Source: a virus. Taken from it: a stretch of DNA of 64,000 bases. The translations under genes were made by a program, and so were the position numbers. Shown one piece after another: positions 12,542-63,592 of the stretch (position 1 is its first letter; each line of letters begins with the position of its first letter). A model generated the notes under the pieces. The model did not search any database. It was not told the origin of the DNA and saw only the letters and a list, made by a program, of their open reading frames with translations. The stretch is taken from IMG/VR virus record IMGVR_UViG_3300045988_150172, one strand, 5' to 3'.

Positions 12542-13570
12542 ATGATGAAACAACCTTTAGCAATAATCAGCACGGACTGGCATATTAAGGCTGATAATAA
12601 GGAATCAATTTTGAGTATTACAGAACAGGAGATACAGTTGGCTCAGAACTGTGGCGTGAGTACGATTATATGGCTTGGCGACATATTTGACAGTAGAACG
12701 AGCCAGAGTCAGGAGCTTCTTACCCTTATGGATAGCATTCTGAATATGTATTATCTTGCAGGGTTGACCGTACACTGTATTCCTGGAAATCATGATAAAA
12801 CAGATTACGGTGATGATAAAAGCTTCCTAACAGTGTTCAAGTATCATCCAAATTTCCATTTACATGAAGAACTGGACATGTTTGTTCTTGGGCAATATAA
12901 ATTCTGGTTAATGCCTTTTTACAGACAGGATGTGTATCTTAAGAAATTTGAAATGTGTACCCCTTTGGGTCGGTGTGTTCTATTCAGTCACACAGCTATT
13001 CAGGGTTCTATCAACAATGATGGCAGCAAGGTGGAGTCTTCCATTAAGGCTTCTCTGTTTAAGGGGTTTGAAAAGGTCTTTCTTGGGCATTATCATAATA
13101 GACAGCAGCCAGCCAAGAACATCTTTCATCTACCGAGCGTGCAGCAGAACAATTTTGGGGAGGATGAGGACAAGGGTTTTACCGTTCTGTATGATGATCT
13201 GTCCTTTGACCTTGTAAAGTCAGTTTTTAAGCCTTATAAGGAGATTGTAGTTGATGCTCGGACAGTCACCTCGGAGGAACTTGTAGAACTTTCCAAGTCG
13301 TCCGTAGATGGGGTGAATCTGCGTCTTACGTTTACAGGGGATAAACAGGCAGTAAAAAAGATTGACCGAAAAAAATTCACAGCCGTCGGTATAAGTGTGC
13401 AGGTTAAGTATGATGATGTCAATGTTGATGAGGTGGATGAGCACCAGAATATCATTGCAATGACCGGAACCAGTATTGCGGAGAAATTTGAAGAATTTTG
13501 TAAGGAAAAAGGTTATGATTATATAAAGGGTTACGAACTATTAAAAGAAATAATGAAATGGCAGGAATAG
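12542..13570 (+). CDS. sbcD: SbcD/Mre11-family nuclease
   Basis: Metallophosphoesterase motifs ISTDWH, WLGDIFD, PGNHDK and LGHYH. Confidence 0.85.
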   Translation: MMKQPLAIISTDWHIKADNKESILSITEQEIQLAQNCGVSTIIWLGDIFDSRTSQSQELLTLMDSILNMYYLAGLTVHCIPGNHDKTDYGDDKSFLTVFKYHPNFHLHEELDMFVLGQYKFWLMPFYRQDVYLKKFEMCTPLGRCVLFSHTAIQGSINNDGSKVESSIKASLFKGFEKVFLGHYHNRQQPAKNIFHLPSVQQNNFGEDEDKGFTVLYDDLSFDLVKSVFKPYKEIVVDARTVTSEELVELSKSSVDGVNLRLTFTGDKQAVKKIDRKKFTAVGISVQVKYDDVNVDEVDEHQNIIAMTGTSIAEKFEEFCKEKGYDYIKGYELLKEIMKWQE

Positions 13571-14524: not shown

Positions 14525-16519
14525 ATGCGACTGGAAACGTTAAGATTAAAGAATTTTCTATCTTTTAGGGAATTGAACCATACATTCCGTAATGGGGCGA
14601 CCCTTATTCAGGGTAAGAATCTTACGGATGATAGCAAGGAGACAAATGGTGCTGGAAAGTCCACTATGGAAGCTGGTATTTCTTATGCACTGATGGCTAC
14701 ATCGCTTCGTAAGCAGACACTGGATAGGGATCTAATAAGGTGGGGTGAGGATGAAGCAGAAGTTGAATTAACACTGTTTTGCCCAGTAAGGAATCAACGC
14801 CTTAGAATTTTTAGAAAAATCCGTAGCAAGGGATCAGCGACACTTGAACTATATGTAAATGAACAGCCTGTTCAGTTTGCTTCTGTGCTGGAAGGAAACA
14901 GGTATATTCTGGACTGGATAGCTATAACACCTGACGACCTAAAGTCATTCTATATTCTTAATAAGGAAAATTATAAGTCGTTCTTGAGTGCTTCCAATAC
15001 AGACAAGCTTGCTCTTATTAATCGGTTTATGAAAGCAGAGCAGCTGGAAGCCGCTGATGATGTTGTAAAGGAGAGAAGCATTCCTTACATTGAAAAGCGC
15101 GATGCGGCTCAGAAAAAGGTTTTTTCGGTGGAGGGGGAATTAGACGCTTACAGGAGTCAATTGACCCATGAACAGTCCCGTAATCTTGATGAGGAGCTTG
15201 AACAGCAAATTGGGGTGATTAACGAGCGAATAAGTGGGTATAGGCTGAAGATCCAAACGTGTGAGGATAATAATAGGCAGATGGAAGAACTGCAAGGTAA
15301 GGTTGAGCTGGAAGTTGATCAGAGAAAGAAAGTCTTGGCGACAGTGAAACAATCACTTGAAGCAATGGTGGTTGACAACACACTTGAACAACAGAAGGAA
15401 TCAATCAGGCAGGAACGTCAGGGGTTGGATAATGCAGTGCTTGAAGCACGTAATTTTCGTAACGAAGAGAATAGAAGACTTGATGAAACGAACAGAAAAT
15501 TAGCTGAACTGAATAAGATGCTTGCAGGTACTGTTACGTGTCCACACTGCCACCACAGATTCCTACTTAATGATACGGAACATTCTATTGCCGCACTTGA
15601 AAGTGAAAAGGTAAATCTGACCTATGATGTGCAGATTCATAATGACACAATCAATGAAGTTAATAAAGTGCTTGATGAACTTGCAGACAATCTTTCCACC
15701 TATGCTGGTAAGGAGGAGGAAATTGTTGAAGCTATGAACAAGCGTGATATTGAATTATCAGCATTGCGTAAACAGGTTGCGGAAGCGGAGCGTACAATTT
15801 ACAGTAAAGAGGCCTTATTGAGTCAATATGAGGAGACTGTTAATCGTAACAATTCTACTATTGAAAATCTACAGAAGGATATTCAACAGGAGGAGGAACG
15901 AATTGCTGTACTGGAAAAGAATGGCATTCAGACAAAGGTTGAAGAATATGAGGGTTTAATAACTTTGACGGAAAGGAAACTGGAGCGTGCTCAGAAGGAA
16001 CTTGAAAAGGCAGAAGCTGAACTCAGTGAACTTCAACAGTGGGGGCAGCGATTTAAGGACTTTAGAATGTCATTAGCCTGTGGCCAGTTGAAAGTGATTC
16101 AGGATGCTGCAAATCTGTCTCTTGAACGGCAAAAATCTGAACTTCGTGTTTCCATTGACGGTTTCAAGGTGAATGCTAAAGGTCAGATTAAGAGTGAAAT
16201 TACAGTGCTTGTTATCAACGGTGAGGGTGAATATAAAAGTTTCTGGTCATATAGTGGGGGTGAACGTGCTAGAGTGGAGATGGCTATGATACAGGCATTT
16301 CAGGAAATGCTCAACGCTACGAACCCCTATGGTGGGCTGGATTTTTTGATGATTGATGAAGTGCTGGAGGGGACTGACCCCCTTGGGTTAAGTTTACTCA
16401 TTGAATCGTTGAAGGACGTAGAAAATCCAGTTTATATAATTAGTCATGTGATGAACATTAAGGTTGGAACACCAATTTTAACTGTTGTGAAAGAAAAAGG
16501 TATAAGCAGAATTGAATGA
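14525..16519 (+). CDS. sbcC: SbcC/Rad50-family ATPase
   Basis: LRLKNFLSF, Walker A NGAGKST, long coiled coil with a CPHC zinc hook, signature YSGGERARV and Walker B LMIDEV. Confidence 0.85.
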   Translation: MRLETLRLKNFLSFRELNHTFRNGATLIQGKNLTDDSKETNGAGKSTMEAGISYALMATSLRKQTLDRDLIRWGEDEAEVELTLFCPVRNQRLRIFRKIRSKGSATLELYVNEQPVQFASVLEGNRYILDWIAITPDDLKSFYILNKENYKSFLSASNTDKLALINRFMKAEQLEAADDVVKERSIPYIEKRDAAQKKVFSVEGELDAYRSQLTHEQSRNLDEELEQQIGVINERISGYRLKIQTCEDNNRQMEELQGKVELEVDQRKKVLATVKQSLEAMVVDNTLEQQKESIRQERQGLDNAVLEARNFRNEENRRLDETNRKLAELNKMLAGTVTCPHCHHRFLLNDTEHSIAALESEKVNLTYDVQIHNDTINEVNKVLDELADNLSTYAGKEEEIVEAMNKRDIELSALRKQVAEAERTIYSKEALLSQYEETVNRNNSTIENLQKDIQQEEERIAVLEKNGIQTKVEEYEGLITLTERKLERAQKELEKAEAELSELQQWGQRFKDFRMSLACGQLKVIQDAANLSLERQKSELRVSIDGFKVNAKGQIKSEITVLVINGEGEYKSFWSYSGGERARVEMAMIQAFQEMLNATNPYGGLDFLMIDEVLEGTDPLGLSLLIESLKDVENPVYIISHVMNIKVGTPILTVVKEKGISRIE

Positions 16520-17016
16520 ATGATAAAACGATAATAGGCGTTGATCCTGGAAAGGAAGGATTTATAACTGTAATGAGGGGTGGTGCGTTTGTTCACCATC
16601 CCATACCCATGGTAGGTCATCGGGAACTGGATATGGTTGCTCTTTCAGCTTTAATTGTTAGTATTGCAAGTGAATGTGATCCTAAGATGACACAGGTTGT
16701 TATAGAGGATGTTCATGCTATCTATGGTAGTTCTGCTGGAGCAACATTTACATTTGGAGGGATAGCCTATGCTCTTAGAATGGGGTTCATCATGGTGGGG
16801 CTTCCTGTGGTGCTTGTAGCTCCTAAGAAGTGGCAGAAGGAGATGTTTGAAGGGGTTAAGGTTGATCCAGATAAAAAGGTGATGTCCATAGCAGCCGCAA
16901 AGCGTCTGTGTCCTGGAGCTGATTTACGAAGAACACCAAGGTGTACCAAGCCTGATGATAATCTTACCGATTCGTTACTTATTGCCATCTATGGTTCAAG
17001 ACATTATGTATTATGA
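16516..17016 (+). CDS. ruvC: RuvC-like Holliday junction resolvase
   Basis: IIGVDPGKEG, VVIEDVHA and NLTDSLLIAIYG fit the RuvC acidic tetrad layout. Confidence 0.75.
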   Translation: MNDKTIIGVDPGKEGFITVMRGGAFVHHPIPMVGHRELDMVALSALIVSIASECDPKMTQVVIEDVHAIYGSSAGATFTFGGIAYALRMGFIMVGLPVVLVAPKKWQKEMFEGVKVDPDKKVMSIAAAKRLCPGADLRRTPRCTKPDDNLTDSLLIAIYGSRHYVL

Positions 17017-18343: not shown

Positions 18344-19414
18344 ATGAGTCTTTTTGAATTTATAGCTAAATCACGTTCAGGTGTCTATAAGGATACTTCA
18401 GAAAATCGTAGACTTCATCGTGTAGGCCAGCGTTATGGTGCAATTCAACAGATTGTTGATGAGGGGGAACTTGTTCCTGGAATGCCTAATTCGACAAAGG
18501 TGAATCTGAAGAAGTACCTTTCAGGTAAGATGAAGCACCAAGTAGATGCATATATTAATGCACTAAAGGTTACTCCTGCTTGGAATGATATTGAGAAGCT
18601 TCGTGCTGTGACTAAAGCTTATCAGGATATGTTTAATGGCAGTTTTGATTCCTTGTCTAAAAGCAATAGAGCTCTTTTTGTTGAAATTGTTAAAAGACTT
18701 CAGAATAGAATTGCTGAACTTGGTGATGCGAAGAAACCTGATAATGCTGTTGTTACGACAAATGTGGGCACAAAATCTAAATTTGAACAGGCGGCTGAAA
18801 AGGCTGGTTTTGAACGTGGTGAGCCGATGTCTATTGATTTGGCTGATGATAAACATGCCAATCCTAAATATATGAAATCAGTTGATGGAAGTTTTCGTCC
18901 ATATACTTGTAATTGTCAGACATGCGTTGTTGCCTATGAACTTAGACGTAGAGGTTATGATGTAGAAGCAATGGGTGCTGGTGTTCAAAAGGGTTTTATT
19001 AATGAATATCAACACTCACTTGCACTTGATAGCACAAATGCCTTTTTGGGAATATCATTTAAGCGTTCTACATTAAATTGGAATAATTCAATTAAGAGTA
19101 ATACACCTAAAGGTCGTCGTGAGTATGTTGCTAATCTGTTTGATGCAACAAAAGAAGAGGGTCGGTATTTCCTTTCCATGAAAAATAGAAGAAGATCTAC
19201 TGGACACATTGTTGTAGTGGAATCCACTGAGGATGGTGGAAAACTTTTAGTTGATCCTCAATCTGGGGAAAGGATTAATCTTACTGATGGTGCTGCCGTT
19301 GATAAATACTTTTCTAGAGTAGATGTTAAGCATCTCTATAATAAAGTATTTAGGGTTGATAATCTGGAATTTAATCCTGCCGTGTTTACCGTTGTAACTA
19401 AAAATTCTGAATAA
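18344..19414 (+). CDS. NRRL-leader protein with papain-fold toxin-like (Gln-deamidase-like) C-terminal domain
   Basis: N-terminus SGVYKDTSENRRLHRVGQRYG. The C-terminus has CNCQTCVVAYELRRRGYDVEA...TGHIVVVES...LVDPQSG, a Cys-His-Asp arrangement like Tox-PL1 (from memory). Confidence 0.5.
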   Translation: MSLFEFIAKSRSGVYKDTSENRRLHRVGQRYGAIQQIVDEGELVPGMPNSTKVNLKKYLSGKMKHQVDAYINALKVTPAWNDIEKLRAVTKAYQDMFNGSFDSLSKSNRALFVEIVKRLQNRIAELGDAKKPDNAVVTTNVGTKSKFEQAAEKAGFERGEPMSIDLADDKHANPKYMKSVDGSFRPYTCNCQTCVVAYELRRRGYDVEAMGAGVQKGFINEYQHSLALDSTNAFLGISFKRSTLNWNNSIKSNTPKGRREYVANLFDATKEEGRYFLSMKNRRRSTGHIVVVESTEDGGKLLVDPQSGERINLTDGAAVDKYFSRVDVKHLYNKVFRVDNLEFNPAVFTVVTKNSE

Positions 19415-19416
19415 AA

Positions 19417-19653
19417 ATGATTGCTGAAAAGGACATATTGAAGATCTGTGAAGCAGCAGGTTGGAAAGGTGGAGAACTTCTTTATGGAGGTTTTGCCGAT
19501 GGAAAGTATTACGTATCCTATGGTGGTAAGAGTGAGGATGGTGTTATTCTGCTAGTGGGAGATCCTATAATTCTCATTGTAGAAAATGGTGTGTGTAGGG
19601 TTGCTACTGATAGTGAAAGGGTTTATTTTTATGAAAATTTCGTGAAAGATTAA
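19417..19653 (+). CDS. small partner protein (immunity-like), paralog of 20688-20925
   Basis: 78 aa, immediately after the toxin-like ORF. Ends ILIVENGVCRVATDSERVYFYENFVKD. Confidence 0.55.
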   Translation: MIAEKDILKICEAAGWKGGELLYGGFADGKYYVSYGGKSEDGVILLVGDPIILIVENGVCRVATDSERVYFYENFVKD

Positions 19654-19660
19654 GGAATAA

Positions 19661-19693
19661 TCCTTGGATATTTCAGAAAAGTGATTATATTTG
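19661..19693 (+). promoter_or_regulatory. promoter cassette
   Basis: TCCTTGGATATTTCAGAAAA, then TATATTTG at 19686-19693. ATG at 19712. Confidence 0.55.
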
Positions 19694-19711
19694 CGTTATA
19701 AAATTTAGGCT

Positions 19712-20440
19712 ATGGGCTTGTTTGAATACATAATTAAAGCTAAATCTGGTGTTTATAAGGATAATCCAGAGAATAGACGACTGCATAGGGCTGGATTACA
19801 ATATGGTCAGAAAAAGCAGCAGGAAAGCGTTCCTGATGTAAACAAGGAGGATTTTGAACTTGCGGAAGCAAAGGTCGAGAAAATGCTTGCCGTGAAACAG
19901 AACTTTGATAATGTTTCACAGGCTGTGTGTATGGAGGTTGGTTGTATTGTCTCCCCTACCAACATTAAAAAGCCCATAAGGATTGCTCAGAAAATGGCTT
20001 CTGATAATTCTACTATTGATGATATTAAGGATGTTATGCGTAACACCTTTGTTGTTAATAGTGACGCTGATGTTGGCAAGGTTATAGAAGTCATATCCAA
20101 GCATTATAAAGTCGTTAGAGTAAAGCGTCAAATGCCTGACAAGTTCGCTGGTTATAGTGGCAATATTGTCAATGTGGAGCTTCCTAATGGTGAAATTGGT
20201 GAAATGCAGGTGAACACGCCACAAATGATATTTGGTAAGGAGGTTGAACGTGATGCTAGAATGATTCTGGGTGATAGTCTATGGGAACGATTAAAGGCCA
20301 ATGCAGGAAACCTTATCCCTGGACTTGGTCATAGGATGTATGAGGTGCTTCGGGATGATTCCATTGACGATGAAAGACTTGATATTGTTGAACGCAATAG
20401 TAGAATTTATTATGATAGAATTAGAAAGATTTCGCTATGA
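19712..20440 (+). CDS. NRRL-leader protein with RelA/SpoT-like nucleotidyltransferase domain
   Basis: N-terminus SGVYKDNPENRRLHRAGLQYG. The C-terminal IDDIKDVMRNTFVV...FAGYSGNIVNVELPNGEIGEMQVNT follows the D..R / GY..H..V / E.Q.RT pattern of alarmone-synthetase folds, though divergent. Confidence 0.5.
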   Translation: MGLFEYIIKAKSGVYKDNPENRRLHRAGLQYGQKKQQESVPDVNKEDFELAEAKVEKMLAVKQNFDNVSQAVCMEVGCIVSPTNIKKPIRIAQKMASDNSTIDDIKDVMRNTFVVNSDADVGKVIEVISKHYKVVRVKRQMPDKFAGYSGNIVNVELPNGEIGEMQVNTPQMIFGKEVERDARMILGDSLWERLKANAGNLIPGLGHRMYEVLRDDSIDDERLDIVERNSRIYYDRIRKISL

Positions 20441-20685
20441 GAACAGTAACTAACAAGGAACTGGGGGAGTTGCTCCGTTCCAATGAAATGGTCTATCTAT
20501 TAGACGACACCGATGAAATTGCATGGGGGTTTCTTGGTGAAGGAAAGAACCGTAGAAGAGTGGTAAGCAAGGCAAAGGGAAGAGAGCCTTTCGAGCACAA
20601 CCCAAAGCAGCAGAACTCCAACAGTATGATCCGTGCCTATATGAATAAGGATGTGATGACAAAGGAGGAATTTGAAAATTACTGA
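20437..20685 (+). CDS. hypothetical protein
   Basis: ORF track. ATGA overlap with the upstream gene. Confidence 0.5.
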   Translation: MRTVTNKELGELLRSNEMVYLLDDTDEIAWGFLGEGKNRRRVVSKAKGREPFEHNPKQQNSNSMIRAYMNKDVMTKEEFENY

Positions 20686-20687
20686 AT

Positions 20688-20925
20688 ATGTGTGAGCGAA
20701 AGAATGACATATTAAAGGTCTGTCAATCGGCAGGTTATACAGAGGGAAACCTCATCTATGGTGGTTTTTGTCAATGGGAAACATTATGTGTCCTACGGGC
20801 AGGATGATGCGGAGGAACTCCAATGTGTAGGTGCTCCTGTCATTCTGATAGTAGAGAACGGTCTATGCAGAATTGCCACTGATGATGAACGAAATTACTT
20901 TTATAGATTTCTTGTGAAAGATTAA
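20688..20925 (+). pseudogene. frameshifted paralog of the 19417-19653 small protein
   Basis: Frame 1 (20688-20807) gives MCERKNDILKVCQSAGYTEGNLIYGGF. After the T5 run at 20765-20769 the homology continues in another frame (VNGKHYVSYG...VILIVENGLCRIATDDERNYFYRFLVKD, stop 20923-20925). Confidence 0.6.
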
Positions 20926-20968: not shown

Positions 20969-21268
20969 ATGGAAATGAAAAATGATTTCGCGAAGTCCAT
21001 TCTTGACAACCCTTATAACAGGGTTGAGGGTGGCCAGAAGATTGAATTGTTCAATGTTCTGTCCAAGTACAGGTATCAGCGTCAGAATAGGCAGTTGACC
21101 ACCTATGTTGCGTATGCCGAGGATCTTGGAATAACCAAGGAGGAAGCTGTGGCTTACCAGAATTGGATAAACGACGGCAATCCGACAGGCATTGAGTCCG
21201 ATGAGCAGTTTTATGAGATTCAGAAACAGGTATATGGCAAGGTTGTTATAAAATTGTCGTGGCTTTAA
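20969..21268 (+). CDS. hypothetical protein
   Basis: ORF track. Confidence 0.5.
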   Translation: MEMKNDFAKSILDNPYNRVEGGQKIELFNVLSKYRYQRQNRQLTTYVAYAEDLGITKEEAVAYQNWINDGNPTGIESDEQFYEIQKQVYGKVVIKLSWL

Positions 21269-21289
21269 TTGATTTTTCATGGGTTATTC

Positions 21290-21321
21290 TTTTGGAAATT
21301 CAAGAACAACGACTATATTTG
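21290..21321 (+). promoter_or_regulatory. promoter cassette
   Basis: TTTGGAAATTCAAGAA, then TATATTTG at 21314-21321. This implies the real start is the ATG at 21349, not 21259. Confidence 0.5.
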
Positions 21322-21348
21322 CGTTGTAAAATTAAAAATGATTTTGTT

Positions 21349-21798
21349 ATGAACATGGTTGTTAAATCTAAAGATCAGTTTCGTCTGGCTACTGAAATCG
21401 CAGTTCAGGCACACAATGGGCAGGTTGATAAGAATGGAGTTCCGTATATCTGTCATCCTATTGCTGTTGCTAATAAATGTTCACTTCCAATAGCCAAGTG
21501 TATTGCTATGCTTCATGATGTGCTGGAAGATACAAAAGTTACAGCAACAGATTTGATTGGTATGGGTGTTGACCCATATATTGTTGAATGTGTGGGGAAG
21601 CTGACACACAGAAAAGGCACTCCATATTTGGACTATATTCAAAGTATAATTGATACAGGAATCTATAACGTTATCAGGGTGAAGTACGCTGACTTATGTG
21701 ACAATCTTGATCCTGCGAGGGGTGGTTTGAACGAGCGGAAGATGCCTTTGTATCTTAAGGCTAAAAGAATGTTGGAGGAAGCGTTATGTCGTGTATAG
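21349..21798 (+). CDS. HD-domain (p)ppGpp hydrolase-like protein (small alarmone hydrolase type)
   Basis: AVQAHNGQVDKNGVPYICHPIAVA and MLHDVLEDT match the RelA/SpoT hydrolase HD signature. Confidence 0.7.
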   Translation: MNMVVKSKDQFRLATEIAVQAHNGQVDKNGVPYICHPIAVANKCSLPIAKCIAMLHDVLEDTKVTATDLIGMGVDPYIVECVGKLTHRKGTPYLDYIQSIIDTGIYNVIRVKYADLCDNLDPARGGLNERKMPLYLKAKRMLEEALCRV

Positions 21799-23711
21799 AA
21801 CTAAGAAATGAAATCCTCCGTTTGAATTCTCTGTATAGGCAAGGTAAGCCGGAGGTCAGTGATGTTGAGTACGATTCACTTGTGGAGCAGCTGAGAGCTA
21901 TATCTCCTGATGATGACTTCTTCAAGTCGGGTGTTGCTGAAAAGGCAACAGATAGAATGCAGAAGCTTCCCCTTCCTATGTTTTCTCTGGAGAAAATAAA
22001 GACGTTTAAGGAGTTTTTGACGTGGGTTGATAGGATGGCTAGGGCTGGGTGTAAAAATCTCGTAATAACGCCTAAATACGATGGAATAAGTCTTCTTGTT
22101 AGTGAACTGTCACAGGCTGCCTGGACAAGGGGTGACGGTGTGCAGGGTCAGCGAAGCGATGCACACTTTTCACGAATGAAGAATGGTGAGGTTGAACAGC
22201 CTGTGTTTGAATATACATGGGGTGAAGCCATCTGTTCTAAAAAGGATTTTGAATCCGTTAAGGGTGAGTATAAGAATGTTCGCAACATGGTTGCAGGTCT
22301 GTTCAACTCTCCTATGGGGGCTAATACGGAACAGATAGGGGCTGTGACCTTTGTAAGGTACGGTATTGATTCTGATGAAAATAAATCCGTTCAACTGGAT
22401 TATCTTAATGGTCGTTACCAATACACTACACCATATAGACTGATACAGATTGAAAACATTCTTATGTATAATGAGAATGATGTGCTGGGTATGTTGGATA
22501 GGCTTTATAGAGAATGGAAGTTGGCATATCAGATAGACGGCCTAGTGATTGAGGTTGATGAAAACAGTGTTCGAAAGAAGTTGGGTCGCAAGCCAAATGG
22601 AAATCCTGACTATGCCGTTGCATTTAAGAGGGAGGAATGGTTGCAGTCCTATACAACAACCGTGGAAAAGGTTGAATGGAATGTTAGCAAGGATGGCTGT
22701 CTGTGTCCTGTGGTATGCGTAAAGCCTGTTGAGATGGAGGGTGCTACCGTGTCCAAGGTAACAGGATATAATGCTAAATACATTCTTGACAATCATATTG
22801 CAGGTGGTTCCACGATAGACATTATTCGTAGTGGTGACGTTATTCCAAAGCATATTAGAACGCTTGGTTATTCTACGGAAACATGTTCAAAGGAATTTCC
22901 TGCTGTCTGTCCATGCTGTGGCAAGCCTGTTCAATGGGATGCGACGCATACCGAGCTTGTATGTACGAATAAGAATTGTAGGCAACAGGTTATTTCCAGA
23001 ATGGTGTACTTTTTCAGAACAATGGGTTGTGAGGGTTTTGATGAACCTATCGTGCGTCGCCTGTATGACGCTGGAATGGATAGTATCCAGCTTGTCGTGG
23101 CGAGCAGGTCATTGGCATTTATGCACGTACTTGGAGAGAATAAGGGGTTGGCTGTATATAATGAGATCTGGAATAAGGTGCTTAATACAAAAAATCCTGT
23201 TGCAAGACTTATGACCGCATATAATGTGTTTGAGGGTGTTCTTGCTGAAAAGACAGCTCAAAGCATTATAGATGGAAGTGAAGCAGTTCAATATCTGTTG
23301 CGTTTCGGTATCAATCAACCTATGAGAGACAAGGATATTTTGGCAGTTCTTCACGAGGAGCTCTGTTCCATCTCTGGTGTGGGTGCTGTTACGGCTGACA
23401 CATTCATTACAGGCATGAATAAGTTCTTGGATATGAGGTGTCTGTATCCCTATTACACCTGCACCCCTAAGAAAAATTTGGCTGATAACTGTATGTATGT
23501 CTGCATGACAGGTTTTAGAGATAAGGAACTGGAGAATGAGCTTATAAAACAGGGGCACGAAGTTTTGAGCGGTGTTACGGCCAAATGTACTGTTCTTGTG
23601 GTGGCTGACTTGAATTCAACAAGCAGTAAGATGCAAAAGGCTCAGAAAATGGGAATTCGTATTGTGGACAGAAAGACATTTGAAGATGAAATATACAGCA
23701 ATAAGGGATAA
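21786..23711 (+). CDS. ligA: NAD-dependent DNA ligase
   Basis: Adenylation motif KYDGISL, Zn finger CPCCGKPV..CTNKNC, HhH region and a BRCT-like C-terminus. Confidence 0.9.
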   Translation: MSCIELRNEILRLNSLYRQGKPEVSDVEYDSLVEQLRAISPDDDFFKSGVAEKATDRMQKLPLPMFSLEKIKTFKEFLTWVDRMARAGCKNLVITPKYDGISLLVSELSQAAWTRGDGVQGQRSDAHFSRMKNGEVEQPVFEYTWGEAICSKKDFESVKGEYKNVRNMVAGLFNSPMGANTEQIGAVTFVRYGIDSDENKSVQLDYLNGRYQYTTPYRLIQIENILMYNENDVLGMLDRLYREWKLAYQIDGLVIEVDENSVRKKLGRKPNGNPDYAVAFKREEWLQSYTTTVEKVEWNVSKDGCLCPVVCVKPVEMEGATVSKVTGYNAKYILDNHIAGGSTIDIIRSGDVIPKHIRTLGYSTETCSKEFPAVCPCCGKPVQWDATHTELVCTNKNCRQQVISRMVYFFRTMGCEGFDEPIVRRLYDAGMDSIQLVVASRSLAFMHVLGENKGLAVYNEIWNKVLNTKNPVARLMTAYNVFEGVLAEKTAQSIIDGSEAVQYLLRFGINQPMRDKDILAVLHEELCSISGVGAVTADTFITGMNKFLDMRCLYPYYTCTPKKNLADNCMYVCMTGFRDKELENELIKQGHEVLSGVTAKCTVLVVADLNSTSSKMQKAQKMGIRIVDRKTFEDEIYSNKG

Positions 23712-57025: not shown

Positions 57026-59557
57026 ATGATGAAAAAGAAATTGGTTCCAGTTGAAAAGTTCATGGAAGTAGCTCTAGCCAATGGCTATGAAGTATTTGAT
57101 GAGGCACAGGTTGCCGCTTATGCCAAGGACTTTATGATAAAATCTCAGGCAGGTGAAGTTCTGCAGGAGGATAAGGATGAATTTGCCGTAGAGATGGCAG
57201 GTCTTCAAAAGGCCATCTGTGCCAATGAGGACGGTAGCCAGTGTACCCTCTATTATCGTAAGCCGCTTGTTGACTGGAAAGTTGACAGCAATGGTCTTGT
57301 GATGAAAGGTATTGCAGGAACATATACTGATACACCTGAAAACAGAAAATTGAATCGTGTTGGTCAGGCTTATGCGGCAAATCCTGATGTAATCAAGGCA
57401 ATCTATGGCGATATTGAAAAGAGTGTAAAGGAAGATGAAGCTGTTGTTGATGCTGAACTGTCTAAACAGGCTGATTCCATTAAGAAGTCCTGTCTGATTG
57501 TTACTGCTGATGCGGATAGAAGACTTGCGCTTGGTGAGATTGATGAAGCGCTCTGTAAGTCGGTTAAGGATGACATTAACTTGTATCTAACGTCTTGGGG
57601 TGATACGCTTGATGAATGCTGTGACGTTGTAAAGTCTGAGGACTTGGCTGACGTGCGTGAGGACTTGGCTGACGCTACCGCTGCATTTGCGGACATTGTT
57701 AAAGCAGCACACGGTCGCTATGCTGACAATGCCAAGAACAGGCGTCTGCATCGTGTAGGTCAGGAATACGGTAAGGCGGCTCAGGAGGAGGACAAAGGTG
57801 GGAAGAAACAGGGTGCGGCTGACGGTGAGTCAGGTGAAAAACCGTCCCGCAACGGTGACTCCGTGAAGCGTGATATTTCCATTCTCGAAGAGAACAAGGA
57901 CAGGATTGTTGAAAAGTACGGCCAGGAAGCCTATGACAAGAAGATTGAAGCCCTGAAGAAGGAGGGTGAGGACTTTGAGCAGAAGGAGACAGTGAAACAG
58001 CTTAAGGAGCGTGCTGACAAGCAGGATGCCGAGGAGGAGGAGCGTAAAAAGGCTGAAAAGAGAGCCAAGCGACAGGAAAGACGTAGAGCGCGTCATGCAG
58101 CCAAGAGGGAAGCAGCTAAAAAGGCCAAGGAGGAAGCCGAGCAGAAGGAGAAACAGGAGTCTGAAAAGAAGAAAGAGCAGCCGAAGCAGGAATCGAAGGA
58201 AGATGGTATTAAGTTGACTCCTAAAGGTATTAAGGACTATGTTGCCAAGAATAGTGCTACTGCTGATGATCGTATGAAAGCAATGGCTGAAGCTTATAAG
58301 GCACTTAAAGATAGCGGTAAGAGCAAGAAAGTTGACACTTTTGTTAAGGAAGTGTCAAGTGGAAGTCCAAAGGTGGATATGACTACACGTAAGTATCTGG
58401 AAGCTTCTATGGATGGAGCTACACACGAGGAAGCCAAGGAATTTGCTCAGAAGACGTTTGAAGCTCTTGATCATGATATTGAAGTGGCTCAGGCAGCTAG
58501 GGAGGGTGGACACCCTCAAGGTATGACGGATTATATGTTGAAAAAGGCTTATGACGTTTTTAATAAAGCGAAGTTTACAAAGAATGAATCACAGGCAGCT
58601 ACATCTGAAGAGGACACCAAGAAGAAAGTTCGTGCCTTTATAAAGAATGGGCTTGATGGTGCTGTTGATAGAGCGATGAAAGGGTTTGTAGATGATTTTT
58701 ATGGTGGTAATGGTGAACATTTGAATGTTTCTGATTATGTTAATAGTGGAGATTTTCAAGAATATTTGAGAGAAGAACTTCCTGACGGTATAATGATTTC
58801 TGATCTAAAGGAAGCTGTTTCATCAGCTGTTAAGGGTGGGATTCAGCGAATGAAGGATGCAGTGTCTAAGGAAGAGGATAAACTTAAAGCAGAGGAAGAG
58901 AAATTAAAGGCTTCAAAGATTGACGAAGCTAAAAAGGCTGGTGCATCTCCCGAGGAAGCAAAAGCCTTTGCTGATAAACTTTATGCTGATACCATAGCGC
59001 GTGCAGAGAGGGAATACAAACGTGACCTAGAGGATGGTAAATTGCCTTATGGAGCGGAGGATTATCAGAAGAAGTACGCTCGAGAAGCCTTTGATAATGC
59101 AAAATTTGAAAAGGGTAAAAAAGACCATGGGTATATGGATAAAGATGATATTGAGCACGTCATGGGTAATGCTGATGTTGTGTATGCTGATATAGATGAA
59201 TTACTCAACACTATTAAGGAACATGGTATTTCTTCAATTCCAGATAAAATGCGTCAAGGTGCAATATCCACTGAATTTAGCGGTGATGCTTTTGATCATG
59301 AAGCATCTGTCCTTATTCCAGGAATGTATAATCGTGTTGGAATGCAGAATGCTTCAAAGGGTAAACAGCCTGAAAAGTTTTATTCATTGAATCTTAAATT
59401 GAAGAATGGTAGAACTTTGCGTGATTTTAATATGGGAAGAGTTACACGTGATGATATAGAAAGTGCTCATTTGCAGGTTAATTACCCCAAGGATAACACA
59501 TATACGATAGAACGTGAAAAGATAAAACTTGACAAAGTTCCTGTTAATGTGTTGTAG
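57026..59557 (+). CDS. large Lys/Glu-rich protein with two internal NRRL motifs (virion/ejection protein candidate)
   Basis: GTYTDTPENRKLNRVGQAYA and GRYADNAKNRRLHRVGQEYG. The C-terminal ~70 aa are similar to the end of the next ORF. Confidence 0.75.
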   Translation: MMKKKLVPVEKFMEVALANGYEVFDEAQVAAYAKDFMIKSQAGEVLQEDKDEFAVEMAGLQKAICANEDGSQCTLYYRKPLVDWKVDSNGLVMKGIAGTYTDTPENRKLNRVGQAYAANPDVIKAIYGDIEKSVKEDEAVVDAELSKQADSIKKSCLIVTADADRRLALGEIDEALCKSVKDDINLYLTSWGDTLDECCDVVKSEDLADVREDLADATAAFADIVKAAHGRYADNAKNRRLHRVGQEYGKAAQEEDKGGKKQGAADGESGEKPSRNGDSVKRDISILEENKDRIVEKYGQEAYDKKIEALKKEGEDFEQKETVKQLKERADKQDAEEEERKKAEKRAKRQERRRARHAAKREAAKKAKEEAEQKEKQESEKKKEQPKQESKEDGIKLTPKGIKDYVAKNSATADDRMKAMAEAYKALKDSGKSKKVDTFVKEVSSGSPKVDMTTRKYLEASMDGATHEEAKEFAQKTFEALDHDIEVAQAAREGGHPQGMTDYMLKKAYDVFNKAKFTKNESQAATSEEDTKKKVRAFIKNGLDGAVDRAMKGFVDDFYGGNGEHLNVSDYVNSGDFQEYLREELPDGIMISDLKEAVSSAVKGGIQRMKDAVSKEEDKLKAEEEKLKASKIDEAKKAGASPEEAKAFADKLYADTIARAEREYKRDLEDGKLPYGAEDYQKKYAREAFDNAKFEKGKKDHGYMDKDDIEHVMGNADVVYADIDELLNTIKEHGISSIPDKMRQGAISTEFSGDAFDHEASVLIPGMYNRVGMQNASKGKQPEKFYSLNLKLKNGRTLRDFNMGRVTRDDIESAHLQVNYPKDNTYTIEREKIKLDKVPVNVL

Positions 59558-59631: not shown

Positions 59632-61080
59632 ATGTTAATAGAAAAATCAAGAAGTGGTGTTTATCAGGACACATCGGAAAATAGGCGTTTACACCGTGTC
59701 GGTCAGAAGTATGGTAAGGTAGCTCAGAAGGAGGAAGATTTTGAATCATTTGCTGATAGGTACGAAAAAGAATATCGAAAGAAACATTCTGGCTCACCAG
59801 TTAAAAATTCTGAAATAAGGTACGAAGCATCAAAGGCATGGGATAAGATGCATTCTTCAGAAAACCGTCGTTTACATCATGTAGGTCAGAAGTATGGTGG
59901 TGCAAAGAAAGATGAAGCAAAAGTTGATTACAAGGATGTAAAAAGTGTTGCTGATTTTTTACTAGATAAATTTAACATTTATTCTAAGACAGAAAATTAT
60001 TCTGAAGTTTCTCCAACTTATCTAAAGTTGAATAAAGGTGTTGAAATCCGTTTTTCTCCTAAAAAAGAATCGGAAAGGGTAGGTAAAGTATTTTATTCTT
60101 CAAGTCAATTTGACAATGAACCTGTTTTTGTAACTATTCTTGCGTCGTTTGATAAATATCCTGAATTAAAGAAATTATTTGACAAGTTAAGTTCTACTAA
60201 TCTTAAAGAAGCAACTGACGGTAAAACTGCTCAATGGGGGACTTGGAAGTTTGCAATTCGAAGCAAGGAAGATTTGAAAAAATTTGGTGAAATTTATAAT
60301 CAAGTTTTCAACAAGAAAAAGGCTGTTTTAGAGTCAGGTGTGAAGAAAGGTGAAATGAAACAGGTTGAGAAAGTTTCTTCAAAAGTTGAAGAACAGCCTG
60401 TTAAGGAAAATGCTGAGAAGCAGGACAAACAGATTTCACGTGTTACTTTTGCAGACGTTCCACGTTCCAGGGAAGTGAACCTGAAGAAGTACCTTACTGA
60501 TTCAAGGCGTAAGCAAGTTGATCATTTGATGAAAGCAGCGGAGGTTATGCCGAAAAGCACTGTAAAACAGATGCATGATGCAGCTGTTAAGAAGTTCAAT
60601 GACAATTTTGATAACCTGAAGAAATCTGAACGTGCATCAGCTCTCTATGTTATTATGAAGTATAAGGACTTTATGAATAAGGCGAAGTCTTCACCTGATA
60701 GGAATAAGGTAGCGCGTGAGGATATAGTCAAAAGAATGTCTGATGCTAAAGTGTCATTTGGTTCTATAGAGCAGATTCTTAGGGAGGGTGCTGAAAAGAA
60801 GAGTGGTGATTCAGGAGCAGTAAAGGGTGATATTGAAGTTGACTTGTCTGGTTCCTATAATGATCATGCTTGGAAATCTTCTGGTCGCAGTAAGCCGAAG
60901 AAGACGTATCAGTTGATACTTCATACGGATGCTGATGCAGGTGCATTTAATAGAGGAACGTTGACAAGGGATCAGATTAAGGGTGTTACGCTTGTTGAAT
61001 CCAATCCATGGGAGGGTTTCTATGTTAAGATTAAGGATATGGATCTTGATGATTTGCCTGTTCGTGCGGATAGAAAGTAA
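59632..61080 (+). CDS. NRRL-leader protein (two motif copies), paralogous modules with 18344 and 57026 ORFs
   Basis: SGVYQDTSENRRLHRVGQKYG at the N-terminus and SSENRRLHHVGQKYG at about residue 75. The VNLKKYL...QVD block is shared with ORF 18344. Confidence 0.75.
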   Translation: MLIEKSRSGVYQDTSENRRLHRVGQKYGKVAQKEEDFESFADRYEKEYRKKHSGSPVKNSEIRYEASKAWDKMHSSENRRLHHVGQKYGGAKKDEAKVDYKDVKSVADFLLDKFNIYSKTENYSEVSPTYLKLNKGVEIRFSPKKESERVGKVFYSSSQFDNEPVFVTILASFDKYPELKKLFDKLSSTNLKEATDGKTAQWGTWKFAIRSKEDLKKFGEIYNQVFNKKKAVLESGVKKGEMKQVEKVSSKVEEQPVKENAEKQDKQISRVTFADVPRSREVNLKKYLTDSRRKQVDHLMKAAEVMPKSTVKQMHDAAVKKFNDNFDNLKKSERASALYVIMKYKDFMNKAKSSPDRNKVAREDIVKRMSDAKVSFGSIEQILREGAEKKSGDSGAVKGDIEVDLSGSYNDHAWKSSGRSKPKKTYQLILHTDADAGAFNRGTLTRDQIKGVTLVESNPWEGFYVKIKDMDLDDLPVRADRK

Positions 61081-61171: not shown

Positions 61172-61861
61172 ATGAAAAAGTATATTTACACAAAGGGGAG
61201 TGAGTCGGTTATTGTTGAGACTGATGGTCTTGGCAAAATTGATAATTTCATTATAACAGGTGTTATTGGTGAAAACTATGGTAGTCTGGTGCAGGCTGGG
61301 TTCTGCTTTAAGATGGGTGATACCGTTTCTATCGCTTCCATGCTGAATATGGCTAAACTTTGCAAGGCAAGAGTTGAATGTTTTGAAGGAAATACTCTTG
61401 TTGTCAATGAGAGTGTTGACTATACGGAGGGTGAGGTTGCACTTGCTGGTACGATAGAGGGCTTGAATCTTTCCATTGTTAGGGATAAGGCATCCTATGA
61501 AGCAAACATGTTCCCTGAATATGTTAAGAAGTATCCTTATGAGGAGGGTGTTACCAATGTTAATTTTCCGTGGCTTGTAGCTAGGTTTAAGAAAGTAACT
61601 GAGAAGGATGACAGCACCTATGAGGTTCAGGTCTTGGCTGATGACAGGGTTCTTGATTTTGTCGGTACAAGTGCTAATCTTGGTAAGGTTTCTGAAGACA
61701 AGAAGACACTTACATGTAAGGCAAAGAACGGTCTGTCTTGGGAAGTAATTAAGGATCTTGGTATTGTCAATCCTAAGGATGTAACTTGGTTTACCATTCG
61801 TATAACTTATAGCGGTGTTCTTTACGAAGCAAAGCTTTATGTAACTCCGGATACAATCTAA
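61172..61861 (+). CDS. hypothetical protein upstream of portal
   Basis: ORF track. The + frame has ordinary composition, unlike the antisense ORF. Confidence 0.6.
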   Translation: MKKYIYTKGSESVIVETDGLGKIDNFIITGVIGENYGSLVQAGFCFKMGDTVSIASMLNMAKLCKARVECFEGNTLVVNESVDYTEGEVALAGTIEGLNLSIVRDKASYEANMFPEYVKKYPYEEGVTNVNFPWLVARFKKVTEKDDSTYEVQVLADDRVLDFVGTSANLGKVSEDKKTLTCKAKNGLSWEVIKDLGIVNPKDVTWFTIRITYSGVLYEAKLYVTPDTI

Positions 61862-61873
61862 AATCTTCCATCT

Positions 61874-63592
61874 ATGAGTAGGAAGAAACACTTCATAAAA
61901 GGTCAGATGGGGGCTGGTTTGTCAGCTCCCATAGACCGTTTAGATGGGATGTCCATTCAGGAATTGAGCTTGATGTCACAGGCTGCACCTCTTGCTCTCC
62001 AGAATAGACTGGAAAAGGCTCTTAGATCAGAAAATGTTGAAGAGGTGTTAAAGGCACAGGCGTTCATTGCACAGCAGGAGAAGAATGGTAAGGCTGTTAA
62101 GCCGGACATCAAATCCATCCTATGGAACCCCTCTGAAATTGGTTTTAATGGTCGTGGATATCGTGATCCTAATAACGGCATACCGTTTACCACACTTCAG
62201 CGAATGGGTGATATCTATATCATTAAATCCATAATCAACACACGTATTGAGCAGATTCAGAATTTCTTAAGGTATAGTGATGACGACCAGAAGCCTGGAT
62301 TTCAGCTTCGCTACAAGCGAGTTGTCGGTGGTGACATTAAGGAAGTATCCAAGAAGGACATGAAAGTGGTTGAGGGGCTTGTGCGTTTTCTTGAGGACGG
62401 TGGTGAGAATGATAAATGGTCTTCAGAGGATAATTTTCAGGACTTTACTCGTAAGGTCATTAAGGATTCCCTGTGTCTTGATCAGATGTGCTTTGAGGTT
62501 GTTCGCAGTCGTAATATGAAAGTGAACAAGTTTAGAGCAGTTGATGCCGCCTTAATACGACAGCTTGATACTGATGATCCACGCTATGCAAGTATGTTTG
62601 AACAGTACAGGTGGCACGGTTATCTTCCTCGTTATGCGATGGTCTGGGATGGCCAGATTATTCGTAACCCAGCTACTGATGAGCTTGTTGTCTATTATCC
62701 ATGGGAACTTGGCTACGGCATACGTAACAAGACGACCAATGTATTCAGGAACGGCTACGGCTGTTCAGAGCTGGAGACTCTTATAGAAGTTGTGACGTGG
62801 ATACTGTGGGGTATGCAGTATAACGGTAATTTCTTTAAGCAGGGGTCACAGCCAAAGGGATTCATCAATGTTAAGAATTCCAACATTGATCAAGGTACGT
62901 TGAATGAGTTCCGTCAGGACTGGAAACAGACAATGTCCAGTGTCTATAATGCCCACAAGATTCCTGTGATACAGGGTATTGATCTTGAGTGGATAGACTT
63001 GCAGCAGTCCAATAAGGACATGGAATTTACGGAGTGGATCAAGTTTTTGTTTGTTGTGACGTGTGCTGTCTATCGTATTGATCCGTCAGAACTGGGCTTT
63101 CAGTTTCAGGATGCCGCAAGGGTGTTTGGACAGGACGGCCAGAAGGAACGTCTTGATCATTCGCAGAAAAAGGGGCTGTTCCCGCTTCTTATCTTTTTCC
63201 AGAACATCATAAATAGATATGTTATATCTGAAATAGATGACCGCTTTGAATTTGTGTTTACAGGCGTGGACATCAAGGATGAGTCCGCTCAGATAGAAAT
63301 TGACAAGAAGAAGCTGGATGCAGGTGTTGTTTCTCTTGAGGACATGTTTCGTAAGTATTCAGGTAGGGAGCTTGACCCTGAAAAGGATACGATCCTTAAT
63401 TCCATCTATCAGACGGCTCAGAGTAATAAGATGATGGGTGGTGAGGATATGAACGGTGCTGTTGATGAGATGAACGGTGAGGGTGGAAATGGTGATTTTG
63501 ACATTGCAGACATGCTGATGCAGAAATCTCAGGGAAACCCTATTCTTGGCAAGGCACTGGAATTTATTGACAATCAGTTATCGGCTAAATAA
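61874..63592 (+). CDS. portal protein
   Basis: 572 aa. YNGNFFKQGSQPKGFINVK...EFTEWIKFLFVVTCAVYRIDPSELG fits the conserved portal core pattern (ff..G..p.G.l / fgvP). Acidic C-terminus. Confidence 0.65.
   Translation: MSRKKHFIKGQMGAGLSAPIDRLDGMSIQELSLMSQAAPLALQNRLEKALRSENVEEVLKAQAFIAQQEKNGKAVKPDIKSILWNPSEIGFNGRGYRDPNNGIPFTTLQRMGDIYIIKSIINTRIEQIQNFLRYSDDDQKPGFQLRYKRVVGGDIKEVSKKDMKVVEGLVRFLEDGGENDKWSSEDNFQDFTRKVIKDSLCLDQMCFEVVRSRNMKVNKFRAVDAALIRQLDTDDPRYASMFEQYRWHGYLPRYAMVWDGQIIRNPATDELVVYYPWELGYGIRNKTTNVFRNGYGCSELETLIEVVTWILWGMQYNGNFFKQGSQPKGFINVKNSNIDQGTLNEFRQDWKQTMSSVYNAHKIPVIQGIDLEWIDLQQSNKDMEFTEWIKFLFVVTCAVYRIDPSELGFQFQDAARVFGQDGQKERLDHSQKKGLFPLLIFFQNIINRYVISEIDDRFEFVFTGVDIKDESAQIEIDKKKLDAGVVSLEDMFRKYSGRELDPEKDTILNSIYQTAQSNKMMGGEDMNGAVDEMNGEGGNGDFDIADMLMQKSQGNPILGKALEFIDNQLSAK

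Follow-up and report, generated by a model that had tools for sequence, protein, structure and literature searches.

This study concerns a short peptide unit that is repeated in the proteins of a virus (IMG/VR record IMGVR_UViG_3300045988_150172). The stretch of DNA analysed, which we call the window, is 64,000 nucleotides long, has a G+C content of 42% and is coding nearly all on the + strand. The unit is about 30 residues in length with the consensus (I/L)-x-K-(S/A)-R-S-G-x-Y-x-D-x3-N-R-(R/K)-L-x-R-V-G-Q-x-Y-G, and its core, G-x-Y-x-D-x3-N-R-(R/K)-L-x-R-V-G-Q-x-Y-G, is found six times in four open reading frames (ORFs). Two of these, ORF18344 and ORF19712, encode toxin-like enzymes, and the other two, ORF57026 and ORF59632, lie close to the gene of the portal protein. 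The copies are located as follows.

18380-18439, + strand: unit copy 1, N-terminal in ORF18344
19748-19807, + strand: unit copy 2, N-terminal in ORF19712
57317-57376 (residues 98-117) and 57713-57772 (residues 230-249), + strand: unit copies 3 and 4, internal in ORF57026
59656-59715 (N-terminal) and 59839-59898 (near residue 77), + strand: unit copies 5 and 6, in ORF59632

The repeated unit in the window

A preliminary description of this DNA had counted six copies of the motif and had treated it as an N-terminal leader. The count is borne out, as a loose regular expression for the core matches six times in the window and not once in 400 shuffled versions of it (200 mononucleotide and 200 triplet shuffles). 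The term leader is appropriate for ORF18344, ORF19712 and ORF59632, where the unit is N-terminal, but three of the six copies are internal. We refer to the unit as the tag. The copies were also said to differ in their codons, and this is the case. Their nucleotide identity is 53-72%, and in each pair of copies 3-10 identical residues are encoded by differing codons, therefore the conservation is at the protein level and not at the DNA level.

The two enzymes are alike at the N-terminus only, as had been proposed. When ORF18344 is compared to ORF19712 by BLASTP, residues 1-36 align (64% identity, E-value 2e-12) and nothing else does. The same method finds only discrete modules in common among the four carriers, namely the tag, a module with the hallmark P-x-S-x-KVNLKKYLS (the NLKKYL module) and a C-terminal module, and given this sharing the four carriers can be regarded as mosaics of a few modules.

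In AlphaFold2 (AF2) models the unit consists of a short strand (G-x-Y), a helix of one turn (E-N-R-R-L) and a second short strand (x-Y-G), and the tag of ORF18344 (residues 11-32) has a predicted local distance difference test score (pLDDT) of 76-79. Among 36 homologues of ORF18344 the tag is nearly invariant while the toxin domains are only 30-35% identical, thus the tag is more conserved than its cargo. The Glu preceding N-R-R is often K, L, A or Q in other copies. Two resemblances to known sequences were considered and set aside as coincidence. The spacing of G-V-Y ... R-V-G recalls the GIY-YIG hairpin, but no further GIY-YIG features are present, and the likeness of 'LFEFIAK' to the 'YQEFIAE' of T4 falls in an N-terminal extension that is not conserved in other carriers.

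Toxin domains behind the tag and candidate immunity genes

The two tagged enzymes are encoded next to each other, together with several small genes.

18344-19414, + strand: ORF18344, predicted Gln-deamidase toxin with tag, 356 residues (Pfam, alignment, AF2 and fold matches)
18368-18439, + strand: tag of ORF18344, residues 9-32 (alignment)
18473-18730, + strand: helical 'P-x-S-x-KVNLKKYLS' module of ORF18344, residues 44-129 (AF2)
residues 129-142 of ORF18344, + strand: disordered linker (AF2)
18779-19411, + strand: papain-fold Gln_amidase domain of ORF18344, residues 146-356, an alpha/beta catalytic domain (AF2)
19417-19653, + strand: ORF19417, candidate immunity protein for the Gln-deamidase, 78 residues, starting 3 nucleotides past the toxin stop (position)
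19712-20440, + strand: ORF19712, predicted Tas1/Apk-like (p)ppApp-synthetase toxin with tag, 242 residues (Tas1 homology)
19736-19807, + strand: tag of ORF19712, residues 9-32 (alignment)
residues 57-239 of ORF19712, + strand: toxin domain of the RelA/SpoT superfamily (Tas1 match)
20437-20685, + strand: ORF20437, candidate IapK-like immunity protein, 82 residues, its start overlapping the stop of ORF19712 (position)
20758-20925, + strand: ORF20758, paralogue of ORF19417 and second or orphan immunity-like gene, 55 residues (BLASTP, 58% identity, E-value 4e-21)
21259-21798, + strand: ORF21259, putative Aph1-type (p)ppApp hydrolase (HD domain) without tag, 179 residues from a GTG start (PDB, NCBIfam and PHROG)

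ORF18344 had been read as a papain-fold enzyme with Cys, His and Asp residues and a C-terminus like that of Gln-deamidases, and the searches agree with this. Residues 190-308 match the Pfam family Gln_amidase (PF15644) with an E-value of 1.2e-11 and 46.1 bits against a gathering cutoff of 24.1, and C191/C194, H288 and D304 are invariant across the 36 homologues. The AF2 model has a mean pLDDT of 83.6, and its catalytic domain matches papain-like toxins and hydrolases in the PDB, weakly by E-value (about 2e-3) and with Foldseek probabilities of 0.99-1.0 for the top matches. Judged by its sequence and model, ORF18344 is a papain-fold toxin of the Gln_amidase family with a predicted deamidase activity.

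It is only the position of ORF19417 that makes it a candidate immunity protein. A homologue that is 76-79% identical directly follows the homologue of ORF18344 at two other loci (L041 and L087), and ORF19417 has no family match in Pfam, PHROGs or NCBIfam. ORF20758 has the C-terminus 'ILIVENG.CR.ATD.ER.YFY..VKD' in common with it; this paralogue stands alone past the Apk toxin module, possibly as an orphan gene for immunity. At a further locus, L130, an ORF of 84 residues behind the toxin appeared similar to ORF19417 by eye, but BLASTP gave no alignment and it was rejected as a homologue.

The second enzyme, ORF19712, had been described as RelA/SpoT-like. Residues 57-239 match the toxin domain of Tas1 (PDB 6OX6, residues 255-435) with an E-value of 8.3e-18, which upholds this, though the score of 25 bits against the Pfam family RelA_SpoT is slightly below the 27-bit cutoff. 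The same Apk domain matches the C-terminal part of phrog_7625, annotated as 'head morphogenesis'. On this homology ORF19712 is a Tas1/Apk-like toxin, with (p)ppApp as its predicted product. MuF-Apk2 toxins are followed by the genes iapK and aph1 (PMC12226406), and because of its position and by analogy to this gene order ORF20437, which has no family match in Pfam, PHROGs or NCBIfam and no match in the PDB, is considered a candidate IapK-like protein. ORF21259, 0.8 kb downstream of ORF19712 and on the same strand, matches a '(p)ppApp hydrolase' (PDB 7SMG, E-value 8.9e-21), the HD end of the SpoT model TIGR00691 (E-value 5.5e-12), phrog_990 and, weakly, HD_4, making it a candidate immunity protein that would hydrolyse the product of ORF19712. 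The order ORF19712-ORF20437-ORF21259 thus appears to mirror the published apk2-iapK-aph1 layout (PMC12226406).

Taken with the small ORFs 20437, 20758 and 20969, the stretch from ORF19712 to ORF21259 (19712-21798) looks like an apk-iapK-aph1-like toxin and immunity module placed within a replication region. The regions that flank the toxin loci (14525-17016 and 21786-23711) seem, from reading the translations only, to encode an SbcC/Rad50-type ATPase, a small RuvC-like protein and an NAD-dependent DNA ligase.

Distribution of the unit and its place in the head operon

The preliminary description had noted that the same leader heads ORF59632 beside the portal, and indeed a single gene of 229 residues lies between the two. 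The features at this end of the window are these.

57026-59557, + strand: ORF57026, conserved portal-proximal protein with two internal tag copies, 843 residues
residues 6-80 of ORF57026, + strand: alpha/beta N-domain (AF2)
59111-59557 and 60685-61062, + strand: C-terminal module common to ORF57026 and ORF59632 (residues 352-477 of the latter) (BLASTP)
59632-61080, + strand: ORF59632, tagged variable protein in the head operon, 482 residues (BLASTP, motif)
60457-60687, + strand: NLKKYL module of ORF59632, residues 276-352 (BLASTP)
61172-61861, + strand: ORF61172, conserved gene with the tagged protein on one side and the portal on the other, 229 residues (homologues)
61874-63592, + strand: portal protein, 572 residues (tblastn to annotated portal proteins)

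The association of the unit with the head operon was assessed at 129 motif loci with a mean length of 8 kb. A homologue of the portal (match over more than 200 residues) is present at 40 of them, within a few kb and without exception on the strand of the motif ORFs; the enrichment is only semi-quantitative, since the loci were centred on motif matches. The portal homologue of the relative L130 matches PF04860 and phrog_12, and among the best annotated relatives of the portal are the DAC and SJC phages of B. thetaiotaomicron. Where the portals are at least 63% identical the gene order is an ORF57026-like gene, a tagged variable protein, an ORF61172-like gene and the portal. The tagged protein in this slot, that of ORF59632 in the window, has 199-608 residues and can be a toxin composed of tag, NLKKYL module and Gln_amidase. 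With portals that are 34-58% identical the tagged protein is usually found 0-5 kb downstream of the portal, and at L021 and L091 it is immediately behind the portal, which is the classic MuF position. The portal-proximal carrier at six loci (L018, L025, L036, L054, L085 and L099) consists of the tag, the NLKKYL module and Gln_amidase. The operon of L130 reads, in order, ORF57026-like, tagged deamidase, 84 residues, 226 residues, portal, minor head protein (phrog_115), NUDIX, head maturation protease (phrog_1028), 270 residues and major head protein.

Homologues of the N-domain of ORF57026 occur at 45 of the 129 loci. ORF57026 has no family match, and the AF2 model of the N-domain has no fold relative (all E-values above 0.3). 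Its centre (window 57950-58250) is a K/E/R-rich, highly charged stretch of low complexity, for example KKAEKRAKRQERRRARHAAKREAAKKAKEE, and recalls internal head or DNA-associated proteins. The C-terminal module that it has in common with ORF59632 is about 130 residues long (25% identity, E-value 9e-8) and is without a family match as well. ORF59632 is linked in turn to the deamidase toxin by the NLKKYL module, through which residues 47-155 of ORF18344 align with residues 276-392 of ORF59632 (E-value 1e-9). This module, 'P-x-S-x-KVNLKKYLS ... FN..FD...K..RA', is helical with a pLDDT of 80-92 in the AF2 model and is present at 33-34 viral loci, and in relatives the tag can be separated from it by an insertion of up to about 300 residues. 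ORF61172 has homologues in the same position at 27 loci and no family match in any library, and is a candidate for the partner or receptor of the tag.

Several further observations concern the relatives of these genes. Close relatives shuffle the modules (L005, L009, L019, L029, L118 and P0120), and the portal-proximal tagged protein varies over its whole range of lengths despite portals that are 94-99% identical; P0120 (556 residues) joins the N-terminal part of ORF57026 to ORF59632-like segments in one protein. The NUDIX protein in the head operon of L130 (6890-8227, 445 residues), with the minor head protein upstream and the maturation protease next to it, has an N-terminus, 'MNLKKLLG', that resembles the NLKKYL element, and behind a tail-fibre-like gene the same locus has a gene like those of GIY-YIG/NUMOD3 homing endonucleases (12823-13038).

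To follow the motif outside the window, a profile built from phage copies only was searched against 1.84 billion cluster representatives and found 1,485 proteins at an E-value of 1e-3 or below and 504 at 1e-10 or below. Absence of the motif elsewhere, which the preliminary description had named as a result that would speak against it, is thereby excluded. An earlier profile search had returned only proteins of at most 83 residues, apparently through a length cap in the choice of candidates; it already pointed to a wide spread of the motif, though not to the architectures of its carriers. We also scanned IMG/VR and the GTDB (596 Gb of bacteria and archaea, one genome each of 185,579 species) with a degenerate DNA pattern of about 38 bits. 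This gave more than 120 stretches of viral contigs, compared to seven stretches in the GTDB, where six are genuine N-terminal tags, all of them in Bacteroidales and mostly on contigs of metagenome-assembled genomes (MAGs), and one is a chance match of the DNA. As the motif is nearly absent from bacterial genomes, we rejected the idea that it serves conjugative elements or chromosomal secretion systems. On two of the contigs from rumen Bacteroidales MAGs (L126 242-1473 and L127 1857-2516) there are two small genes about 0.6-1.2 kb apart, with open frames of 115-201 codons. Both small genes begin with an identical leader, MISLLETILIKSRVGRYKDNA.NRRL.RVGQPYG, and they may be tagged mini-effectors or pseudogenised copies.

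The only cultured phages with the motif are six myoviruses of B. thetaiotaomicron (DAC16, DAC19, DAC20, DAC22, DAC23 and SJC03) with 3-5 sites each; in DAC16 and SJC03 it heads a Zeta toxin (E-value 2.8e-35), an AAA-like protein and others, and the tagged proteins of DAC16 include DAC16_76 (the Zeta toxin), DAC16_79 and DAC16_82. The carriers appear to be non-temperate Bacteroidales myoviruses of roughly 100 kb. In complete ORFs at viral loci the motif is within 60 residues of the start in 76 of 128 and in the last quarter in 3 of 128. The proteins with an N-terminal tag fall into at least 46 clusters at 60% identity with unrelated C-termini. Most of these clusters have no recognisable domain, and those that do include Zeta_toxin (five clusters), Gln_amidase (two), the 'minor head protein' PHROG (three), ADPrib_exo_Tox and HEAT repeats; NUDIX proteins are also among the carriers in the best database matches. 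The long carriers are polyvalent proteins with ART-PolyVal, Kinase-PolyVal, NUDIX and DUF5661 domains, and in these the motif is internal, between domains. The motif has no Pfam, NCBIfam or annotated PHROG model, and a profile search of the PDB gave one spurious match of 15 bits. We found no description of it in the literature, where string searches returned unrelated papers such as potyvirus reports, and a search for terms in the paper on polyvalent proteins (PMC5512222) turned up no description of an N-terminal or short motif.

The top-scoring matches of the phage-only profile are animal proteins, from Biomphalaria (KAK0061970.1), Saccostrea (XP_062600528.1), Acanthaster (XP_022104385.1) and Mercenaria (XP_053372625.1). 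These proteins have 5-13 tandem units of the form 'Y-V-D-N-x-x-N-R-x-L-G-R-V-G-x-x-x-G-S' joined by Ser-rich linkers. In mollusc and sea-star proteins that bear a kinase the tandem units precede domains of the tyrosine kinase-like (TKL) type (Raf/CTR1/MLK-like), and the Mercenaria protein has them alongside a RING/coiled-coil region. The animal and phage consensus sequences have Y-x-D-N-x-x-N-R-x-L-x-R-V-G-x3-G in common. An alignment of the two sets by hhalign has a probability of 98.9%, which is inflated by the fact that one regular expression picked both sets; independent evidence for the likeness comes from the profile, because it was built from phage copies only and itself retrieved the animal proteins. 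No description of the tandem unit in invertebrate kinases was found in the literature.

Related systems and the role of the tag

The closest parallel to the phage proteins is provided by the MuF polymorphic toxins (PMC5576092; MuF-Apk2, PMC12226406), which likewise have a conserved N-terminal module and interchangeable C-terminal toxin domains. The genes of MuF toxins adjoin the portal and have small immunity ORFs behind them; here it is ORF57026, ORF59632 and their relatives that adjoin the portal, and not ORF18344 or ORF19712, which are the ones with candidate immunity ORFs downstream. Jamet et al. (2017) describe MuF genes as abutting portal genes, list PF04233 and PF06152 as MuF domains, find a small ORF behind 89% of MuF toxin genes and note that Gp7 of SPP1 binds the portal and is present in 1-2 copies per capsid (PMC5576092). 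The cargo is alike too, with Gln_amidase on Phage_Mu_F or Phage_min_cap2 in one case and an Apk/RelA-SpoT toxin with an Aph1 hydrolase behind it in the other. As is characteristic of the MuF class, the toxins are variable, and one tag is found ahead of Gln_amidase, a Tas1-like Apk, Zeta_toxin, ADPrib_exo_Tox and NUDIX. However, no MuF domain (PF04233, PF06152 or related) or Phage_min_cap2 was matched in the four carriers of the window at E-values up to 0.1, and their N-termini have no PHROG or NCBIfam match. The phage module here spans about 30 residues, to which the NLKKYL module may be added, and it can be internal or duplicated; in close relatives the portal-proximal tagged copies are upstream of the portal rather than downstream. 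Furthermore, MuF toxins have been reported only from temperate phages, whereas tag carriers are almost absent from bacterial genomes, with the six genuine sites in the GTDB against the more than 120 viral stretches.

A second comparison, already made in the preliminary description, is to the capsid-targeting sequence of the T4 internal proteins and Alt, also a short N-terminal peptide on otherwise unrelated proteins. The T4 sequence is about 10 residues long and is cleaved by the prohead protease, and its carriers are packaged and injected. The unit described here has no sequence relation to it, is about 30 residues long with a predicted fold and no evident cleavage site, occurs in internal and repeated copies, and its link to packaging is one that we infer. 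The system works like a MuF toxin or a T4 tag yet belongs to neither class, having no MuF domain and no sequence relation to T4. The other half of that earlier comparison, to polyvalent proteins, holds in that the motif lies inside genuine ones and that the effector repertoire (ART, kinase, NUDIX, RelA/SpoT and Zeta) is the same. Polyvalent proteins are proposed to enter with the DNA (Iyer et al. 2017, PMC5512222). They differ in that each carrier in the window has at most one recognisable effector domain, compared to at least two in the distant carriers P0205, P0212 and P0222, that the motif is not among the LPD and PolyVal models of Pfam, and that the GTDB scan found no link to conjugative elements.

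In encapsulins, short and usually C-terminal cargo-loading peptides direct diverse enzymes into a shell of the HK97 fold. These are the closest mechanistic analogy for a tag that is only a peptide, and an analogy only, as the sequences are unrelated. Tas1 (6OX6), Aph1 (7SMG) and Gln_amidase (PF15644) resemble the present system in the cargo alone, being homologous in sequence to ORF19712, ORF21259 and ORF18344, respectively. The delivery of Tas1 relies on a type VI secretion system (T6SS). The toxin domains here bear the phage tag and not a trafficking domain of the T6SS, type VII secretion system (T7SS) or MuF kind.

Taking these together, we consider with a probability of roughly 0.55 that the motif is a new short trafficking module that takes the place of MuF in a family of phage polymorphic toxins and probably loads its cargo into the capsid. 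Docking to the procapsid is suggested because the tag fills the slot of the trafficking domain in an architecture whose other versions are anchored to the capsid. In other proteins homologues of this deamidase domain have Phage_Mu_F, Phage_min_cap2, Peptidase_S78_2 (XkdF) or VG15 joined to their N-terminus, and the structure matches of the domain in BFVD are a 'minor capsid protein', a 'capsid maturation protease and MuF-like fusion protein' and a 'capsid morphogenesis protein'. In such a system the tag, often followed by a variable linker and the helical 'KVNLKKYLS' module, would bear an interchangeable C-terminal cargo and would dock it onto a component of the assembling procapsid, which could be the portal, the core or scaffold, the inner surface of the capsid, or the portal-proximal ORF57026 with its two copies. 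The effectors would then be encapsidated and ejected along with the DNA, while the untagged immunity proteins (ORF19417, ORF20437 and the Aph1-like ORF21259) would shield the cell that makes the toxins and, at a later time, perhaps undo the arrest.

Virion loading or processing by this motif was also the proposal of the preliminary description. It draws strong support from the context, namely the spread of the motif and its near restriction to Bacteroidales phages, the unrelated effectors, the occurrence in polyvalent proteins, the flanking of the portal and the capsid chassis on which the same toxins occur elsewhere, but several results weigh against it. No conserved protease site is visible beside the tag in the alignment of ORF18344 homologues, the unit is internal and repeated as well as being a leader, and the count of portals is biased by the centring of the loci. 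ORF18344 and ORF19712 are in a replication and recombination region about 40 kb from the portal, outside the head operon, and the tagged genes of DAC16 are about 75 kb from its portal; toxin and antidote pairs in an early or middle region could make sense if the antidotes are needed soon after injection of the toxin. The locus L130 has a 'minor head protein' (phrog_115) of its own, so the tag is not simply replacing an absent MuF-like gene. Only six cultured phages have the motif, and no virion proteomics was found for any carrier. Finally, capsid loading is impossible for the animal repeats, thus the elementary activity of the unit must be more general than capsid binding, and an activity independent of the capsid, such as self-association, docking or ligand binding, would fit them.

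This last point leads to the alternatives. A possible one, though we hold it to be doubtful, takes the unit for a generic peptide of docking or self-association (a knuckle akin to short linear motifs) that has no link to the capsid and joins tagged proteins to each other, to the NLKKYL module or to a conserved cellular partner. In that case the effectors would do their work in the infected cell once they have been expressed, for example in host takeover, superinfection exclusion or conflict between phages. This agrees with a unit that is portable and can be internal or repeated, with the defined local fold that AF2 gives the tag beside the helical module, with the placement of ORF18344 and ORF19712 among replication genes of early or middle type, and with the tandem units in animal TKL kinases and the RING/coiled-coil protein, which are architectures typical of assembly-driven signalling. 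It leaves unexplained why the unit is almost exclusive to phages among prokaryotic sequences, why it is biased to the N-terminus and placed in the head operon, and why identical cargo sits on a capsid chassis elsewhere; it could nonetheless be reconciled with capsid loading should the partner be a protein of the head. A broader and equally tentative idea, to which we would give slightly less credit, is that the strand-helix-strand unit, with about 20 residues (Y-x-D-x3-N-R-x-L-x-R-V-G-x3-G), works on its own as an interaction module across kingdoms, an assembly motif in the spirit of RHIM and amyloid-signalling motifs. Bacteroidales phages would use it to co-assemble cargo with two-copy portal-proximal core proteins by self-association or docking, so that the cargo gets into the capsid, and in molluscs and echinoderms 5-13 tandem copies would gather TKL kinases and RING E3-like proteins into clusters or recruit them.

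We regard it as unlikely that the unit is a processing site for the head maturation protease or another peptidase, which would free leaders or separate the domains of multi-domain and polyvalent proteins. In its favour the lineage has a gene for a head maturation protease (phrog_1028), polyvalent proteins have the motif in between their domains, in some relatives the same cargo is fused to a protease of the XkdF type, and the prohead protease cleaves off the capsid-targeting sequences of T4. Yet 20-30 structured and strongly conserved residues far exceed the needs of a protease site, no scissile-type residue is conserved at the flanks, the Glu before N-R-R is itself variable, and the animal repeats do not fit. 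Binding of nucleic acid, with effectors that travel with or act on DNA or RNA and animal multi-repeat kinases that serve as nucleic-acid sensors, seems slightly more improbable still. The core is rich in Arg and Gly (N-R-R-L-x-R-V-G), the unit is associated with K/E-rich proteins encoded beside the portal, and multivalent repeats ahead of a kinase recall the double-stranded RNA-binding motifs that precede the kinase domain of PKR; set against this, the unit has no similarity to a known nucleic-acid-binding motif in Pfam, NCBIfam or the PDB and the targets of the cargo are diverse. For a recent duplication, gene conversion or an element of DNA or RNA without function at the protein level nothing speaks beyond the repetition itself. 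We rejected this explanation as hardly credible, given nucleotide identities of only 53-72% with many synonymous differences, a motif that is kept across portals down to 34% identity and in 1,485 cluster representatives, and its absence from all the shuffles.

If the reading as a module across kingdoms is the correct one, phage conflict systems and invertebrate proteins resembling those of innate immunity would have one hitherto unrecognised assembly motif in common, and the tandem units in invertebrate kinases already point to an uncharacterised protein module that works beyond phages. If the tag loads virions, it would be a compact, peptide-only route for the packaging of enzymes in gut Bacteroidales phages, and phages might be engineered with it to carry proteins of choice into Bacteroides. 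The motif is also a simple sequence handle for spotting effector genes of unknown function in gut viromes. As a trafficking module it would carry the concept of polymorphic toxins beyond the temperate MuF phages and into gut phages that appear to be virulent, and the predicted injected arsenal of (p)ppApp synthetase, Gln-deamidase, Zeta toxin, ADP-ribosyltransferase and NUDIX proteins, together with antidotes encoded by the phage, suggests a timed arrest and release of the host.

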